Numbered from the stretch's first letter, positions 6,364 through 58,899 are shown. The stretch is 64,000 nt of DNA from Bdellovibrionales bacterium (GCA_028819305.1 JAPPLY010000057.1:30432-94431); one strand, 5' to 3'. Notes: generated from the sequence alone by a model not told the origin. Numbers and translations: made by a program.

Positions 6364-6570
6364 ATGAGACAAATTATCATTAAACCAGGGGAAGATGGGT
6401 TTTGGCTCGCTGAATGTCCTAGTTTGCCCGGTTGCCTTAGCCAAGGACAATCCAAAAAAGAAGCTATAAAAAATATTCAAGAAGCTGTTGAGGGGTATAT
6501 TGAAGTTTTACAACAAGATGGAGATCCCATACCTGAAGATAATATGGAATCTGTCATTGTAGCAATATGA
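6364..6570 (+). CDS. hicB: HicB-family antitoxin (UPF0150 fold, short form)
   Basis: 68 aa. EDGFWLAECPSLPGCLSQGQSKKEAIKNIQEAVEGYIE is the classic HicB N-domain pattern. ATGA overlap with hicA. Confidence 0.85.
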   Translation: MRQIIIKPGEDGFWLAECPSLPGCLSQGQSKKEAIKNIQEAVEGYIEVLQQDGDPIPEDNMESVIVAI

Positions 6571-6779
6571 GCAAACTCCCCGTCCTTTCTGGCAAAGAAT
6601 GTGCTCAAATATTAAAAAGATATGGATTTGAGTTTCGCAGGCAGAAGGGAAGTCATATCATTTTACGGCATAGCTCTTCTAAAATACTTCTTACAGTACC
6701 TAATCATAAAGAACTTGATAGAGGAACATTAAGAGCTATTATCAGGCAGTCAGGGTTAGATATGAAAAAATTTTGTTGA
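6567..6779 (+). CDS. hicA: HicA mRNA-interferase toxin
   Basis: 70 aa. LKRYGFEFRRQKGSHIILRH...LTVPNHKELDRGTLRAIIRQSGL matches the HicA/YcfA signature (GSH...H.. .l..gtl..Il.q.gl). Confidence 0.85.
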   Translation: MSKLPVLSGKECAQILKRYGFEFRRQKGSHIILRHSSSKILLTVPNHKELDRGTLRAIIRQSGLDMKKFC

Positions 6780-22038: not shown

Positions 22039-22530
22039 GTGTTTTTAGGAAGAAAGGGAAAAAGCGTGACAAGGATATCCTGGTTTTTTCTTATTTTTGT
22101 TTTTTTTATTTTAAATGTCGGTTCTACTGTCATTTTGTTTTCTCCTATGCGGCAGGGAGTGCAAAGTTGGCTTGTATCTGAAGAGAAAAAGTTACTGTCT
22201 GTGGTGCATTCAAGAGACTTAATATATGATGGAACCCCTATAAAGGTAGTAAAGTTTCAAACTTTAAAAGGTATCGTGTTGGAGTTTTATTCCAAACATC
22301 AAAATGGTTATCATGCCTTAGTGACTCGGGTGGAAATTCCTAGCGCTAAAGATGGTTTTTTTGATCATCGTGGGCAGGCGGTTCAATTAGCCGTGGTGGA
22401 TTTGGATGGAGATGGTAAAATGGAGCTTCTTTCTCCTACTTTTAATGAGCATCTTCAAGCGAGCTTAAATCCTTATCATTATTCCACAGAGGCAAAGGCT
22501 TTTATTCCGTTTTTCTTTCCTAAAAATTAA
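22039..22530 (+). CDS. Membrane-anchored hypothetical protein
   Basis: 163 aa. N-terminal TM ISWFFLIFVFFILNVGSTVILF. VVDLDGDGKMELL resembles an FG-GAP/VCBS-type Ca-binding loop. Confidence 0.4.
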   Translation: MFLGRKGKSVTRISWFFLIFVFFILNVGSTVILFSPMRQGVQSWLVSEEKKLLSVVHSRDLIYDGTPIKVVKFQTLKGIVLEFYSKHQNGYHALVTRVEIPSAKDGFFDHRGQAVQLAVVDLDGDGKMELLSPTFNEHLQASLNPYHYSTEAKAFIPFFFPKN

Positions 22531-22544
22531 ATTGCTGATAATGT

Positions 22545-22704
22545 TATATCCGTTCGGTTTGCTCCCAGACTGTCGCTAGGACCAGGAAGTTTAGTCATTT
22601 CCGCTAAGCTTATCCCCGTAAAAGCGGGGAGAGGGAACCTTGTTTACTCCCCTCTGGCTGCATGGAATAATAAACACACTTCCAAACTCACAAACAAGGA
22701 GTAT
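22545..22704 (+). repeat. Family E repeat element
   Basis: tatatccgttcggtttgc start. Internal hairpin cttatccccgtaaaagcgggga, shared with 61650-61675 (cttatccccgcttccgcggggataag). Ends tcacaaacaaggagtat. Confidence 0.55.
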
Positions 22705-22784
22705 CCTTTTCTCTTTCTTATTATTTTCTATACAACAAAGTGGCAAAAATTGACAAAATTATAAAATAATAGCAAAAGTTTTTT

Positions 22785-23393
22785 ATGGTTTATAAACATC
22801 ATGTCCCTTCTTTAGATCGTTTGATCCATGAATTAAAAAAATGGCCGGGGGTAGGGCCTCGTAGTGCCAATCGCTGGGCAAATTGGCTGTTAAGAACATC
22901 TAAAGTGGAGATTCAACAACTCAGACAAGCTCTAAAAGATATAAAAACTAATATCAAAAAATGCCCAGGGTGTTTTACTTTAACCGAAGAGGAAAAGCTA
23001 TGCTATTTATGTGATTCTCCAACTCGTAAAAAAGATATTATTTGTATTGTGGAGGAACCTTTTGATATTGCTCATATTGAAGCGTCTGGTAAATTTAAAG
23101 GGCAATATCATGTGTTACATGGGGCTTTATCCCCTTTAAATAAGGTTACCCCGGAGGATCTGACGCTTGGCCCTCTTATGGATAAAATACGAAAAGGACA
23201 AATAAAAGAAGTGATTTTGGCTTTAGATGCAGATATGGAAGGGGATATTACAGCTTTGTATATAGGAAAAATGATGAAAAATTATCATGTAAAAGTATCT
23301 CGCCTAGCTCATGGTATCCCGTTTGGAGGAGATATTGATTATATTGACGAACAAACTTTAGGTCGGGCTTTGGAAAATCGAGTGGAAATATAA
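22785..23393 (+). CDS. recR: Recombination protein RecR
   Basis: LIHELKKWPGVGPRSANRWA (HhH), C4 zinc finger CPGCFTLTEEEKLCYLCDS, Toprim ICIVEEPFDI. Confidence 0.95.
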   Translation: MVYKHHVPSLDRLIHELKKWPGVGPRSANRWANWLLRTSKVEIQQLRQALKDIKTNIKKCPGCFTLTEEEKLCYLCDSPTRKKDIICIVEEPFDIAHIEASGKFKGQYHVLHGALSPLNKVTPEDLTLGPLMDKIRKGQIKEVILALDADMEGDITALYIGKMMKNYHVKVSRLAHGIPFGGDIDYIDEQTLGRALENRVEI

Positions 23394-23395
23394 AA

Positions 23396-23986
23396 ATGTC
23401 TCTTTTTAATTATAACTCCAAGGAAATTCATTGTAAGGTCATCTATTACGGTCCGGTAGGAGCTGGTAAGACCACTAATATCAAATGGATCTGCCGAAAT
23501 ACTTTAGATCAAAAGTGGGATGTGTTTTCCATTCCTTTGCAGACAAAACCCAGCGCTTTCTTTGATTTTTTGCCTTTGGATATCGGTTCCATTCGGGGGT
23601 TTAAAACGCGATTTCACCTTTATACCATTCCGGGAAATGATTTATTTGAAACTTCTCAAAAACTCTTGTTGAAGGGAGTTGATGGTATCGTGTTTGTTGT
23701 GGATTCACAAAAAGGTAAAATGGAGGAAAATGAAAAATCTATGAACCAGCTAAAACAATATTTAAGTGAAGAAGGCTTATCTTTAGAAAAAATTCCTATG
23801 GTTATACAGTACAATAAAAGAGATCTACCGGATATTCATTCTATTACACATATTCGTACAGCCTTAAATTATTATAATCATCCTGATTTTTCAGCTTGTG
23901 CTGAAAAAGGGCAAAATGTTTTTGAGCCTTTAAAAACGCTTTTAAAGATGGTCCTTACTGTTCTGAAAGGGGGTCGTTTTCAATAA
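23396..23986 (+). CDS. mglA: MglA-family Ras-like small GTPase (gliding/polarity GTPase)
   Basis: Collinear with my recollection of the M. xanthus MglA sequence. NYNSKEIHCKVIYYGPVGAGKTTN, FFDFLPL, IRGFKTRFHLYTIPGN, LLKGVDGIVFVVDSQ, VIQYNKRDLP. Starts 2 nt after the recR stop. Confidence 0.9.
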   Translation: MSLFNYNSKEIHCKVIYYGPVGAGKTTNIKWICRNTLDQKWDVFSIPLQTKPSAFFDFLPLDIGSIRGFKTRFHLYTIPGNDLFETSQKLLLKGVDGIVFVVDSQKGKMEENEKSMNQLKQYLSEEGLSLEKIPMVIQYNKRDLPDIHSITHIRTALNYYNHPDFSACAEKGQNVFEPLKTLLKMVLTVLKGGRFQ

Positions 23987-24233
23987 TCCTTGAGTTTACT
24001 ATGTAATAATTTCTCCATGCGCCAAAGTTCTGAAAGGGGGGTGCTTTCAATAATCCTTGAGGAGAACAATCTGGAATTTTATTTTAAATGTTTTGAGATA
24101 AGGTCGTTTTCAATTCTTCTTAAAAAAGGTCTTTTACTGTTTGATGAGTTTGTTCCGTTTGGTTTTATTTTCTTAAAAATGGTTTTTATAAATTTATTAG
24201 TCAGAAAAGTGTTTCAATTATAGAATCTTAAGG
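23960..24233 (+). repeat. Decaying tandem array of copies of the mglA 3' end (stop-codon-spanning 35-mers)
   Basis: gttctgaaagggggtcgttttcaataatccttgag 23960-23994 (contains stop TAA 23984-23986); gttctgaaaggggggtgctttcaataatccttgag 24027-24061; gagataaggtcgttttcaattcttcttaa 24095-24123; tcagaaaagtgtttcaattatagaatcttaagg 24201-24233. The period is ~67 bp for the first three copies. Confidence 0.8.
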
Positions 24234-24393
24234 AAGAAGAATAAAAAAAACCAAGTTGGTAAAAAATCTTTAAAGACTTTAGTCTGGTGACCGATACTTA
24301 TATTGATCTTGTAGGGATTACTGCCGGGATCAATATAAAAACTTTGGTTCTTGACTGATGACAGGTACGTAACAGAAAGGGTGGGTACTTATA

Positions 24394-24753
24394 ATGAATT
24401 TGAGTAATCAGGAAACACAACAGATAAAAGCTTGTTCTATCACTTTTTCCAATGAGGAAAATATTATAGCTAAAAGAGCAATTATTTCGGAGGTGACAAC
24501 CAGTGGTTTTAAGCTCATTCTTAATTATCGTAATTTGGTGCCGGATTCTCTCAAATTTCAATTACACTTAAATACTTTGTGGTATAAAAACATTCGTATA
24601 TATATACCTGATATGGAAATGGATTGGGAAGGGAAAGTGGTCGGCACTCAACATCTGGGAAAAGGCTGCTTTGAGGTGAATATAGAATTTTTTCAGGAAG
24701 TCCCAAATTATTGGCGGGAGTGTCTATTTGAATTATGGCCTAAACCTATTTGA
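24394..24753 (+). CDS. Small protein, possibly a degenerate PilZ domain
   Basis: 119 aa. EVTTSGFKL resembles the (D/N)xSxxG half-motif and the C-terminus FEVNIEFFQEVPNYWRECLFELW resembles PilZ ends. No RxxxR motif. Weak call. Confidence 0.3.
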   Translation: MNLSNQETQQIKACSITFSNEENIIAKRAIISEVTTSGFKLILNYRNLVPDSLKFQLHLNTLWYKNIRIYIPDMEMDWEGKVVGTQHLGKGCFEVNIEFFQEVPNYWRECLFELWPKPI

Positions 24754-24792
24754 TTATCATATCACTTTGTTACGAGAAAAATAGGATGGAGA

Positions 24793-26103
24793 TTATAAAT
24801 CTTTAGAATCTAAAATCTCGGCGGAAAATATGTTTTGGATCTCCTGGATCAAATGATGTTCTTGAACCTGGGTTTCTTTCGACGGTGAAACTTCTTTTAA
24901 TATCTGTCCTTTTTTTTCCTCGATGGAGTGGTTTGTGACTTTCGGGGCTTCTTTTTTTGGTGGAGGTAGCTTGTTTGTTGTGGGAGGTATAACTCCAAAG
25001 AGGCTTTCTACATAAGGAGCTTGACTCATTTTTAAAAGGAGCATTTCTAAAAAGACTTTTGTGTCTTGAACGCGAGTGATATCCCAAGAGCCTTTTAAAG
25101 CCATGTCTAAAAGGAGATGGAGATCTTCGGGGGAGATATCTTGAACCCATTTTGAAAGTTTTAGTTTCTCCTTTTGAGACAAAGAGATCAAATGGTGTGT
25201 AGAGGGGGGGGGAGCTAATTTTAATAATAATAGATTTCTTAATTCTTTAATCAGGTTTTGTAAGAAAACGGAAGGGTCTCCTCCTTTTATATGAAGTTGG
25301 TCAAGCACTTTCAGTATTTGTTGGGGATTTTTTTCTAAAATCCCTTGGAGACTTTGGGTAAGAAGAGCCTCGTCTGTCAATCCTAACACTTCACTTACAT
25401 CTTTAGATGTAAAGTGATTATGGCAAAATGTCATCATTTGATCTAAAAGCCCCTGAGCGTCCCTTAAAGAACCCTGCGCCTCTCTTACCAAAATCCATAG
25501 GGCATTGTCTTCTGTCTGTGCTTTTTCTTTCTTACATATTTTTTTTAACTGCTCATAGATAAGGTGGTCAGCGATCTGATGAAATTGTAAAATCTGACAT
25601 CGCGAAAGTACCGTGGCAGGAATTTTTCTCATCTCTGTTGTAGCCATGATAAAAAGAGCATGAGGGGGAGGTTCTTCCAATGTTTTTAGCAACGCATTGA
25701 AAGCGCTCACAGATAACATGTGCACTTCATCAATGATATATATTTTATAAGGAGCGGCGGGAAGATAAATAATGGTTTCTTTTAGCTGTCTCACCGCTTC
25801 CACTCCATTATTGGAGGCTCCATCAATTTCCATAACATCTAAAGAGCAGCTGCTATCTATGTCTTGGCAAACTGTACAGTGATTGCAGGGAATAAAATTT
25901 TTTAAATTTAAACAATTTAAGCTTTTAGATAAAATACGTGCCGTGGAAGTTTTTCCTGTACCGCGCGGGCCTGAGAAAATAAGGGCAGGGTGCAGTCGTT
26001 TGTGTTTTAAACTATTTGTTAAAATGCGCACAACAGAACTTTGGCCAACAAGGTCTTCAAAAACAGCAGGTCTCCATTTTCTAGCTAGCACTTGATAAGA
26101 CAA
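24793..26103 (-). CDS. dnaX: DNA polymerase III subunit gamma/tau
   Basis: SYQVLARKWRPAVFEDLVGQ, Walker A GPRGTGKTS, Zn module CNHCTVCQDI, DEVHMLS. I prefer the TTG at 26103 (GGAGGTG SD 6 nt upstream, giving MSYQVLARKWRP as in E. coli). The ORF track extends to 26118. Confidence 0.9.
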   Translation of the reverse strand: MSYQVLARKWRPAVFEDLVGQSSVVRILTNSLKHKRLHPALIFSGPRGTGKTSTARILSKSLNCLNLKNFIPCNHCTVCQDIDSSCSLDVMEIDGASNNGVEAVRQLKETIIYLPAAPYKIYIIDEVHMLSVSAFNALLKTLEEPPPHALFIMATTEMRKIPATVLSRCQILQFHQIADHLIYEQLKKICKKEKAQTEDNALWILVREAQGSLRDAQGLLDQMMTFCHNHFTSKDVSEVLGLTDEALLTQSLQGILEKNPQQILKVLDQLHIKGGDPSVFLQNLIKELRNLLLLKLAPPPSTHHLISLSQKEKLKLSKWVQDISPEDLHLLLDMALKGSWDITRVQDTKVFLEMLLLKMSQAPYVESLFGVIPPTTNKLPPPKKEAPKVTNHSIEEKKGQILKEVSPSKETQVQEHHLIQEIQNIFSAEILDSKDL

Positions 26104-57708: not shown

Positions 57709-58899
57709 TTAAGAGGCGTTCGTCTTTGTTTTTAAAGATAATCCTGTGCTAGATATGTCTTGAGTTTTAGTTATTTGCTCTGGGGCAGATTGATTCATAT
57801 ATTTTTCAAATTGATTTTCAAAGGAGATTCCAGAGGAGATCAGTTTAATTTTTTCTGCAGATGTGGAAAACCGATTAGCGTCTCTTTTAGAAATTAATTT
57901 TTGTTTCATCATTTCAATTAAATGTTGATCGAAAGTTTGCATGCCCCAGTGGTTTTTACTTTCCGTCATAATTTTCCTTATTTGCTCTGTAGAGCTGTGT
58001 TGTTTTTCAATCTCTTTTTGTACTCGATAGTTATTAATTAAAATTTCCATAGCGGGAATATAACCTGTTCCATCTTTTTTAGGAATCAACCTTTGTGCAA
58101 AAACAGCTTTTAATACAGAAGATAAAACCAGTCTTACAGACTGTTGTTCGACACTGGAGAACACACTCAAAATTCGATTAATAGTTTCTGCTGCCTCTTG
58201 AGTGTGAATAGTAGAAAATATTAAATGTCCTGTTTCTGCAGCCGTTAAGGCAGTAGAAATAACATCTTTTGTTCTTAATTCGGAAAAAAGAATAATATCC
58301 GGGTCTTGCCTTAAAGCGGATTTTAGAGCGAGATGGGGATCATAACAATCTACACCCATTTCTCTTTGAGTGATAAGGCTATGATGATCTTGAATCAAAA
58401 ATTCAATCGGGTCTTCAATGGTAAGGATGTGTTTATTTTTGGTTTTATTGATGTGATTAATGATAGCTGCCAAAGTGGTTGATTTTCCCACTCCAGTGGC
58501 TCCCGTAACCAAAATTAAGCCTCTTTCTGCTTTGTTTACGATGTTTAGTATTTCCATTGGAAGGTTTAAATCGTTAAAAAGAGGGACATTGTGAGGAATG
58601 TGACGAACAGCTACCCTTATACTGCCTCGTTGAAAAAAGATATTAAAACGGAATCGCCCTATTCCTTTTAATCCATAACCTAGATCCACAGACCCATATT
58701 CTCTCAATTGTTCCTGGTAATTGTCAGTTAATATAGGTGCGATCAGCTGATCTATTGTGTGATTATTAATAATAGGTAAATCAGAACTGAGAGTGCATAA
58801 TTTGGTTTTTTTTCTCATAATAGGGGGAGCCCCTACTTTTAGATGCAGATCACTTCCTCCTTTGTGCACTAATTCTGTTAATAATTTATCTATGTCCAT
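57709..58899 (-). CDS. pilT: Type IV pilus retraction ATPase PilT/PilU family
   Basis: GGSDLHLKVGAPP, Walker A GATGVGKSTTLAA, Asp box, LRQDPDIILFSELR, HLIFSTIHT. Confidence 0.85.
   Translation of the reverse strand: MDIDKLLTELVHKGGSDLHLKVGAPPIMRKKTKLCTLSSDLPIINNHTIDQLIAPILTDNYQEQLREYGSVDLGYGLKGIGRFRFNIFFQRGSIRVAVRHIPHNVPLFNDLNLPMEILNIVNKAERGLILVTGATGVGKSTTLAAIINHINKTKNKHILTIEDPIEFLIQDHHSLITQREMGVDCYDPHLALKSALRQDPDIILFSELRTKDVISTALTAAETGHLIFSTIHTQEAAETINRILSVFSSVEQQSVRLVLSSVLKAVFAQRLIPKKDGTGYIPAMEILINNYRVQKEIEKQHSSTEQIRKIMTESKNHWGMQTFDQHLIEMMKQKLISKRDANRFSTSAEKIKLISSGISFENQFEKYMNQSAPEQITKTQDISSTGLSLKTKTNAS

Follow-up and report, generated by a model that had tools for sequence, protein, structure and literature searches.

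A Bdellovibrionia MglA without the GTP-hydrolysis residues of its family and with its nucleotide-binding motifs intact

We analysed a 64,000-nt stretch of DNA from a Bdellovibrionales bacterium (GCA_028819305.1 JAPPLY010000057.1:30432-94431), hereafter the window, in which positions are counted from the first letter. It carries an mglA gene, lying directly downstream of recR and followed by a small open reading frame (ORF) for a PilZ-fold protein. Among bacterial small GTPases, MglA serves as the model for cell polarity, and the mechanism by which its partner MglB repositions an intrinsic arginine finger and a Gln is considered universal in Group 1 of the family. We number residues after M. 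xanthus MglA (Mx) where stated or where sequences are compared; the window protein is 1 residue shorter before switch I. The gene and its active-site motifs are as follows.

23396..23986, + strand: gene for the 196-aa MglA orthologue, a member of the X21/P53/S54/X82/Q89 clade (PDB phmmer, AlphaFold2 (AF2)/Foldseek, neighbour-joining (NJ) tree)
23450..23473, + strand: P-loop, G19-P-V21-G-A-G24-K25-T26, where Mx reads GPGLCGKT (sequence)
23549..23554, + strand: switch I residues P52-S53, in the place of two Mx residues, the intrinsic arginine finger R53 and the G2 threonine T54 (MAFFT and HMMER alignments, concordant)
23624..23638, + strand: switch II/G3 motif, T77-I-P-G-N81 (sequence)
23657..23659, + strand: Q88, in the place of Mx R89 (Ras R68 position, switch II helix) (alignment)
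23813..23824, + strand: G4 motif N-K-R-D for guanine specificity, kept (alignment)

The ORF is an MglA orthologue and the orthologue of the Bdellovibrio mglA. When all PDB sequences were compared using phmmer, the best matches were M. xanthus MglA (6h17/5ymx/6hjh, E ~1e-63), T. thermophilus MglA (3t12) was matched at E=3.5e-54, and the next family after MglA, Rab27B, reached merely 6e-7. An earlier note on this DNA, made from the sequence alone, had described the protein as collinear with M. xanthus MglA, and it is: residues 1-193 align with Mx 1-194 across a single 1-residue gap, located before switch I, at 53% identity. The AF2 model (46 sequences; mean predicted local distance difference test score, pLDDT, 81.8) matched the MglA structures 6izw/6h17 in Foldseek with template-modelling (TM) scores of 0.81-0.83, and Pfam gave a generic Arf/small-GTPase signal only. 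An independent Logan contig from a sponge-metagenome run had 0 differences from the window over 22400-24900; therefore, the residue changes described here are not assembly errors.

We found that the protein has the G-domain signature of Group 1 (GxxxxGK[ST] and [NT]KxD, present as GPVGAGKT and NKRD) and that its closest relatives in sequence and fold are MglA proteins. It also departs from Group 1 at the residues that define catalysis. The P-loop codons are G19 ggt (23450-52), P20 ccg, V21 gta (23456-58), G22 gga, A23 gct, G24 ggt, K25 aag and T26 acc, which puts Val at the position of Ras G12 and MglA G21. The TVPGQ motif of the group reads TIPGN, with its T, P and G present and its Gln changed to Asn: N81 (aat, 23636-38) aligns with Mx Q82, the catalytic Gln. 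The R53-T54 pair of the group is P52-S53, and the Pro aligned to R53 is encoded by ccc (23549-51). Thus, the two hot-spot substitutions proposed in the earlier note, V21 (GTA) and Asn at the Mx Q82 position, were both recovered from the sequence and the PDB alignment, and the catalytic Gly and Gln positions hold V and N, not G and Q. A third loss had been missed, that of the arginine finger (R53 to Pro), together with the changes of T54 to Ser and R89 to Gln.

Searching 5.8 billion proteins, we found a tight group of ~42 clusters with 63-92% identity to the window MglA, many of them on 1-3 Mb contigs, separated by an identity gap that extends down to ~55%, where Bdellovibrio-like proteins start. 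Residue counts were taken from an alignment of 41 members of this clade and 78 Bdellovibrio-like sequences (P0043-P0120), the S21 sister group. Clade members have Pro at position 53 (36/41), Ser at position 54 (38/41) and Gln at position 89 (39/41), the last being Arg in all canonical loci, meaning those of the G21/R53/T54/Q82 type (n=65). Position 21 is Ala in 20 members, Lys in 6, Val in 4, Thr in 4, Pro in 2 and otherwise another residue, Glu and Asn among them (entropy 2.43 bits, n=41); position 82 is Asn in 17, Gly in 10, Asp in 6, His in 3, Ser in 2, and Glu, Arg and Gln in 1 each (2.31 bits, n=41). The sister group, by contrast, keeps R53, T54, Q82 and R89 in 78/78 sequences and S21 in 77/78. 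The losses at positions 21, 53 and 82 are a trait of the clade, not the oddity of a single sequence.

The nucleotide-binding residues show the opposite pattern. G19, G24, K25, T26, D58, P80, N141, K142 and D144 are invariant (41/41), G81 (39/41) and T78 (34/41, else Ser/Ala) are nearly so, and A170 is present in 37/41 members. The sister group has 95 nearly invariant columns; of the three that vary most in the clade, two are 21 and 82. Position 82 also ranks, with the adjacent 83, among the clade's most variable columns, whereas the median column entropy in the clade at sites invariant in the sister group is 0.17 bits. Unlike in the S21 group, positions 21 and 82 have been released to drift.

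The clade's mglA genes are under strong purifying selection (dN/dS, the ratio of non-synonymous to synonymous divergence, is 0.05-0.18; synonymous sites are saturated or nearly so), and full-length, intact ORFs were present in all 41 clusters. An NJ tree with 200 bootstraps supported the clade in 200/200 replicates and its union with the S21 Bdellovibrio group in 199/200, and placed the Bacteriovoracia, which have G21 and MglB, as sister to the two together.

Outside the catalytic positions, the third of the three most variable formerly invariant columns, and the most variable of all, is G175. Further altered MglA columns are Mx 167, 112, 52 and 22, and D/E52 is mostly Lys in the clade. In M. 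xanthus, a D52A mutant of MglA is delocalised. The variability of G175 and the Lys at position 52 suggest a remodelled effector or partner surface.

We searched for MglB, the cognate GTPase-activating protein (GAP), with a hidden Markov model (HMM) built from 62 iterated-search matches, essentially one mglB ORF per canonical locus, directly upstream of mglA. The area scanned was the 64 kb of the window, out of a ~121-kb source contig, and ±8-10 kb around mglA in relatives. The HMM detected mglB directly upstream of mglA in 61/65 canonical loci; of the four misses, three (L025, L029, L057) have mglA at the locus edge and one (L035) has ~4.8 kb upstream. It detected mglB in 0/13 S21 loci and 0/7 clade loci, and gave no match in the whole window (best E=0.22). 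Pfam gave no match at all on the small ORFs flanking mglA in the window, and no Robl_LC7 domain was among its calls on the neighbours in the window and in clade loci. Consequently, the window locus departs from Group 1 in having no mglB within four genes of mglA. The earlier statement that no mglB adjoins this mglA holds, with the small correction that the canonical gene lies upstream of mglA and not after it.

These losses fall on the residues that the known mechanism depends on. MglB gives no catalytic residue and instead repositions the Arg and Gln of MglA itself (PMC4316618, PMC9481161), and the R53 arginine finger is stated to be conserved in every MglA protein of Group 1 (PMC4316618). 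Q82A is the standard GTP-locked MglA allele (PMC7519303), and G21V lowers kcat ~7-fold (PMC3000849). The natural sequence in the window thus combines the changes engineered for GTP-locking, G21V and a change of Q82 (Asn, as against the engineered Ala/Leu), with the loss of R53. With G21, R53 and Q82 gone and the nucleotide binders kept, the protein should therefore bind but not hydrolyse GTP, with or without an MglB-type GAP. We propose, with a probability of roughly 70%, that the window protein is a GTP-binding, hydrolysis-deficient and GAP-independent MglA that would serve as a constitutive GTP-bound scaffold.

The neighbouring features that bear on this proposal are as follows.

22785..23393, + strand: recR, directly upstream of mglA (TIGR00615 E=6e-67, full equivalog; Pfam RecR_HhH, Toprim_4, RecR_C)
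23960..24124, + strand: three diverged direct 35-nt copies of the mglA 3' end, starting at 23960, 24027 and 24090 (100/91/71% identity)
24394..24753, + strand: PilZ-fold small protein, 119 aa, downstream of mglA (AF2 and Foldseek)
24793..26118, - strand: dnaX, ancestrally the first gene of a dnaX-recR-mglA-pilZ-like block (gene order compared with L001, L002, L081, L083 and L084)
57709..58899, - strand: PilT-like type IV pilus ATPase, candidate downstream machinery of MglA, given for context only (Pfam T2SSE E=6e-41)

The recR stop codon (TAA, 23391-93) and the mglA ATG (23396) are 2 nt apart. The same adjacency was found in the clade loci L001, L002, L081, L083 and L084 and in Bdellovibrio sp. 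HCB290 (L008), where the mglA ATG overlaps the recR stop. The coupling to recR noted earlier is thus real, down to its 2-nt spacing, while its description as an unusual operon partnership does not stand, since the recR-mglA order is conserved in Bdellovibrio and in the clade. Because the arrangement is common to Bdellovibrio and every clade member examined, the coupling is ancestral to the class. No terminator-like site was found between recR and mglA in a promoter/terminator scan that was uninformative beyond that, promoter-like sites being no commoner than in shuffles. The sequencing runs that hold the window sequence are DNA or unclassified only. In a scan of 22400-24900, Rfam matched a plastid group II intron D5 inside recR (23271-23290, 20 nt), which at 24.7 bits against a gathering threshold of 65.5 was taken as chance.

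The five clade loci share the order dnaX-recR-mglA-(small PilZ-like ORF), followed on the other strand by a 150-165-aa ORF, rluD, tsaB, rseP, cdsA, uppS, frr, pyrH, tsf and rpsB. Compared with these relatives, the recR-mglA-pilZ-like segment is inverted in the window with respect to the dnaX and rluD sides, and dnaX is on the opposite strand to mglA because of this inversion in the window lineage. A ~93%-identical strain, found in a second sponge metagenome, shares this inverted order. The breakpoint intervals are 22531-22784 and 24754-24792, and recR is thereby separated from dnaX. In L001, the PilZ-like gene alone is inverted and overlaps the mglA 3' end by 24 nt. The conserved 150-165-aa ORF, at 22039-22530 in the window, encodes a protein with a hydrophobic segment at the N-terminus and a weak match to an FG-GAP-like repeat (E=0.002-0.003 in Pfam, short of the cutoff), and it always flanks the mglA block, as do its homologues in the same five relatives.

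Bdellovibrio sp. HCB290 has the order dnaX-ybaB-recR-mglA-nadA-PPTase-pilZ-like. Its ybaB, between dnaX and recR, and its nadA and PPTase gene, between mglA and the pilZ-like gene, are all three not at those positions in the window. The ybaB/ebfC gene (L008 9043-9366) is likewise not at that position in the clade loci examined, where the dnaX-recR intervals are L001 9283-9375, L002 9337-9366, L081 7357-7361 and L084 7264-7369.

The earlier label of "PilZ-like" for the small downstream ORF was borne out at the level of the fold. Its AF2 model (pLDDT 80.5) is a predicted beta-barrel, and its top-ranked Foldseek matches in the PDB were nearly all PilZ domains, among them BcsA (4hg6, E=9e-4, TMq 0.62), VCA0042/PlzD, PP4397, MotI and MrkH, with a probability of ~1.0 and TMq of 0.57-0.62. 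Unlike these proteins, the window ORF has neither a Pfam PilZ match nor the RxxxR motif; Pfam matched no family to the window protein or the Bdellovibrio orthologue (E<=0.1 for each), nor to 16 aligned relatives (E<=10). The window protein and the Bdellovibrio orthologue share 30% identity (E=2e-22). A profile search recovered 72 representatives among 1.8 billion proteins. The gene adjoins mglA in 7/7 clade loci, on the same strand except in L001. In 9/13 S21 loci (L004-L010, L014, L015) it follows mglA in the same orientation, 0.6-4.5 kb downstream, whereas it was found in 0/65 canonical mglBA loci. We know of no prior description of a conserved linkage between mglA and a PilZ-like gene.

Bdellovibrio orthologues of this protein carry the motifs [KR]RxxxRK and [DEN]ASxxG. 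RxxxR is gone in all 7 of the clade's copies, and the second motif is partly kept; the window protein has no Arg in its N-terminal 25 residues and reads EVTTSG at the second motif. Binding of cyclic di-GMP (c-di-GMP) by the clade's PilZ-like proteins has probably been lost. The loss of RxxxR parallels the loss of the MglA catalytic residues.

The repeat array reported earlier after mglA was found as three direct 35-nt copies (0 expected in shuffles). The final 27 nt of mglA make up the beginning of the first copy, and the segments between repeats can be aligned with each other for units 1 and 3. The repeats were not found in L001, L002, L081 or L084, there are no further copies in the window, and Tandem Repeats Finder returned nothing at the region. 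The geometry would fit a CRISPR mini-array (35-nt repeats with 32- and 28-nt spacers), which was ruled out: copy 1 belongs to the conserved end of mglA itself, the repeats have degenerated, the spacers of units 1 and 3 can be aligned and the array is strain-specific, with 23991-24207 replaced by unlike sequence in the ~93%-identical strain. In our reading, the repeats come from a tandem duplication of the 3' end of mglA that is degenerate and specific to the strain. An analogous duplication, 3 x 144 nt and near-identical, is present at the 3' end of the PilZ-like gene in L083 (9126-9597).

The proposed mechanism can be set out as a series of steps. In the common ancestor with Bdellovibrio, MglB and Gly21 would already have been gone. 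On the long stem branch of the clade, R53 would then have become Pro, R89 would have become Gln and Q82 would have been freed to drift, to Asn in the window. This order of losses, MglB and G21 first and the constraint on R53, R89 and Q82 later, is the most parsimonious one, given the tree and the distribution of MglB. The binders of the guanine nucleotide and Mg2+ and the gamma-phosphate sensors (P-loop Lys/Thr, D58, S54 for T54, G81, NKxD) would have been kept. The protein would load GTP, take the ON conformation and stay there, acting as a polar scaffold or recruiter and not as a cycling switch, in an amount that may be set by constitutive co-transcription with recR. Its likely client, by analogy with Bdellovibrio, would be a type IV pilus or invasion-pole module, and the adjacent PilZ-fold protein is its probable partner. 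The link between the PilT-like ATPase in the window and MglA is likewise suggested by the M. xanthus and Bdellovibrio literature (PMC7519303, PMC3983030).

Several points weigh against the reading of a GTP-locked scaffold. We infer the loss of hydrolysis from homology, and with it the GTP-locked state, the cellular role and the partnership with the PilZ-like protein. Two clade members still have Arg at position 53 (P0010, P0028), and one has Gln at position 82 (P0040). Keeping S54 and G81 as gamma-phosphate sensors would be most important to a protein that still alternates between two nucleotide states. An mglB gene may be encoded elsewhere in the genome, or a trans-acting GAP may supply the catalytic residues. 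The proposed pilus or invasion role is an extrapolation from Bdellovibrio, and metagenome-assembled genomes of sponge Bdellovibrionota are reported to be without motility genes (PMC9944714), though a PilT-like gene is present in the window.

The main rival explanation is that the protein is still a cycling GTPase and is given its catalytic residues in trans by a GAP, either as an Asn thumb in the style of Rap/RapGAP or as an extrinsic arginine finger, so that the mechanism would have been changed and not lost. Small GTPases that have no catalytic Gln and use residues supplied in trans do exist. The types of GAP are summarised in PMC9481161. The conservation of S54 (38/41), of G81 (39/41) and of most of both switch regions would be expected from such a cycle. 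However, by analogy with Ras G12, an inserted finger would be obstructed by the bulky or charged residues that different members have at position 21 (K, V, T, P, E, N), Gln82 has not given way to any newly conserved polar residue, and the conserved neighbourhood has no candidate GAP. We consider this explanation unlikely, yet the best placed of the alternatives.

Alternatively, the protein could be a nucleotide-independent pseudoGTPase, a structural protein that binds neither GTP nor GDP. Several of its active-site positions are altered (21, 22, 53, 82 and 89), but the invariance of G19, G24, K25, T26, D58, N141, K142 and D144 across the clade, together with A170 in 37 of its 41 members, is unexpected if binding were dispensable, and makes this quite improbable.

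The window mglA could also be a divergent paralogue, SofG-like or from a different group of the MglA family, in a genome whose canonical mglA/mglB pair is encoded at another place. Myxococcus does have such paralogues (PMC4316618), and 64 kb of the genome was seen. Yet the gene has the recR-linked position and the downstream PilZ-like gene of the Bdellovibrio mglA, it groups with the S21 clade (199/200), and its product has the 196-aa length of MglA, with no SofG-type extension and with the T-x-P-G of Group 1 kept; this account therefore seems about as improbable as the loss of nucleotide binding. Last, a gene decaying under relaxed selection in a shrinking symbiont genome, with the hot-spot changes as early pseudogenisation, would suit the lineage's small genomes (contigs measure 1.0-3.0 Mb, and one of 1.76 Mb is apparently circular) and low GC (37% in the window) and the motif also lost by the adjoining PilZ-like gene, but is made very improbable by the intact ORFs in 41 clusters, the dN/dS of 0.05-0.18, the median entropy of 0.17 bits and the conserved synteny.

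Placed among known systems, the GTP-locked scaffold that we propose stands closest to Bdellovibrio bacteriovorus MglA (Bd3734), with which the window protein shares a non-Gly residue at position 21, no adjacent mglB, the position after recR, a downstream PilZ-fold gene and membership of a sister clade, at ~52% identity to the Bdellovibrio-type proteins. With M. xanthus and T. thermophilus MglA (Group 1; 6h17, 6izw, 3t12), it shares the fold, the length, Thr78 for Ras Asp57, the FFDF motif with D58, and NKxD; unlike them, it has no MglB nearby, no G21, no arginine finger and no catalytic Gln. A comparison can also be drawn with Rnd1-3 and RhoH, GTPase-deficient members of the Ras superfamily that have natural substitutions at the G12 and Q61 equivalents and retain nucleotide binding. 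By this analogy, the window protein is predicted to be constitutively GTP-bound and controlled by its abundance or localisation; it differs from them in being a bacterial MglA-family protein and in being additionally without an intrinsic arginine finger.

The literature on Bdellovibrio, on which the earlier note was accurate, describes an MglA with S21 and no mglB, proposed to be GTP-locked and to have a role in prey invasion (Milner et al. 2014, PMC3983030); the proposed site of action is the piliated, invasive pole (PMC3983030, PMC11025332). MglA of this type is characterised by a requirement for it in type IV pilus formation or prey invasion and by its interaction with an SgmX-like TPR protein and the RomR hub; of such machinery, a PilT-like gene was seen in the window. 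An orphan S21 MglA is thus already known. A Group 1-derived clade without the arginine finger and Gln is not described in the 2014 survey of the family (Wuichet & Sogaard-Andersen, PMC4316618), and a full-text literature search for MglA with pseudoGTPase returned nothing relevant.

The window sequence occurs in sponge metagenomes, as do more distant relatives, and the relative L001 is present in runs whose labels name single organisms in coded form. Sponge symbionts with reduced genomes have been described among the Bdellovibrionota (PMC9944714). The source lineage is a sponge-associated, small-genome member of the Bdellovibrionia. Elsewhere in the window, a leucine-rich-repeat (LRR) protein (27666-29129; Pfam LRR_8, LRR_4, LRR_14) is followed by an ORF of 1163 aa that has no Pfam match (29133-32624), and the pair is conserved beside a YgjP-like gene in a relative (L084 1-4605). 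Among the eukaryote-like proteins that sponge symbionts carry, LRR proteins are typical. Two small overlapping ORFs at 6364-6779 are, by eye, a candidate HicB/HicA-like toxin-antitoxin pair, as we presume.

It is an even bet, in our estimate, whether this host-associated lineage of Bdellovibrionia has made MglA into a natural GTP-binding 'pseudo-switch', discarding G21, the arginine finger and Gln together with the c-di-GMP motif of the linked PilZ protein. The clade offers a natural experiment: in ~40 lineages, MglA has stayed under strong purifying selection once every hydrolysis determinant was lost, which opens a direct route to telling its GTP-binding (scaffold) function apart from that of the GTPase cycle. 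The sister group bears on the decade-old proposal of a permanently GTP-bound Bdellovibrio MglA: the S21 group shows no variation at R53 and Q82, which would be expected to drift if S21 by itself abolished hydrolysis, and this argues that Bdellovibrio MglA still uses both. If these readings are true, Bdellovibrio MglA would not simply be GTP-locked as proposed, and the conserved, essential function of MglA in the class would be GTP-dependent scaffolding and not GTPase cycling.

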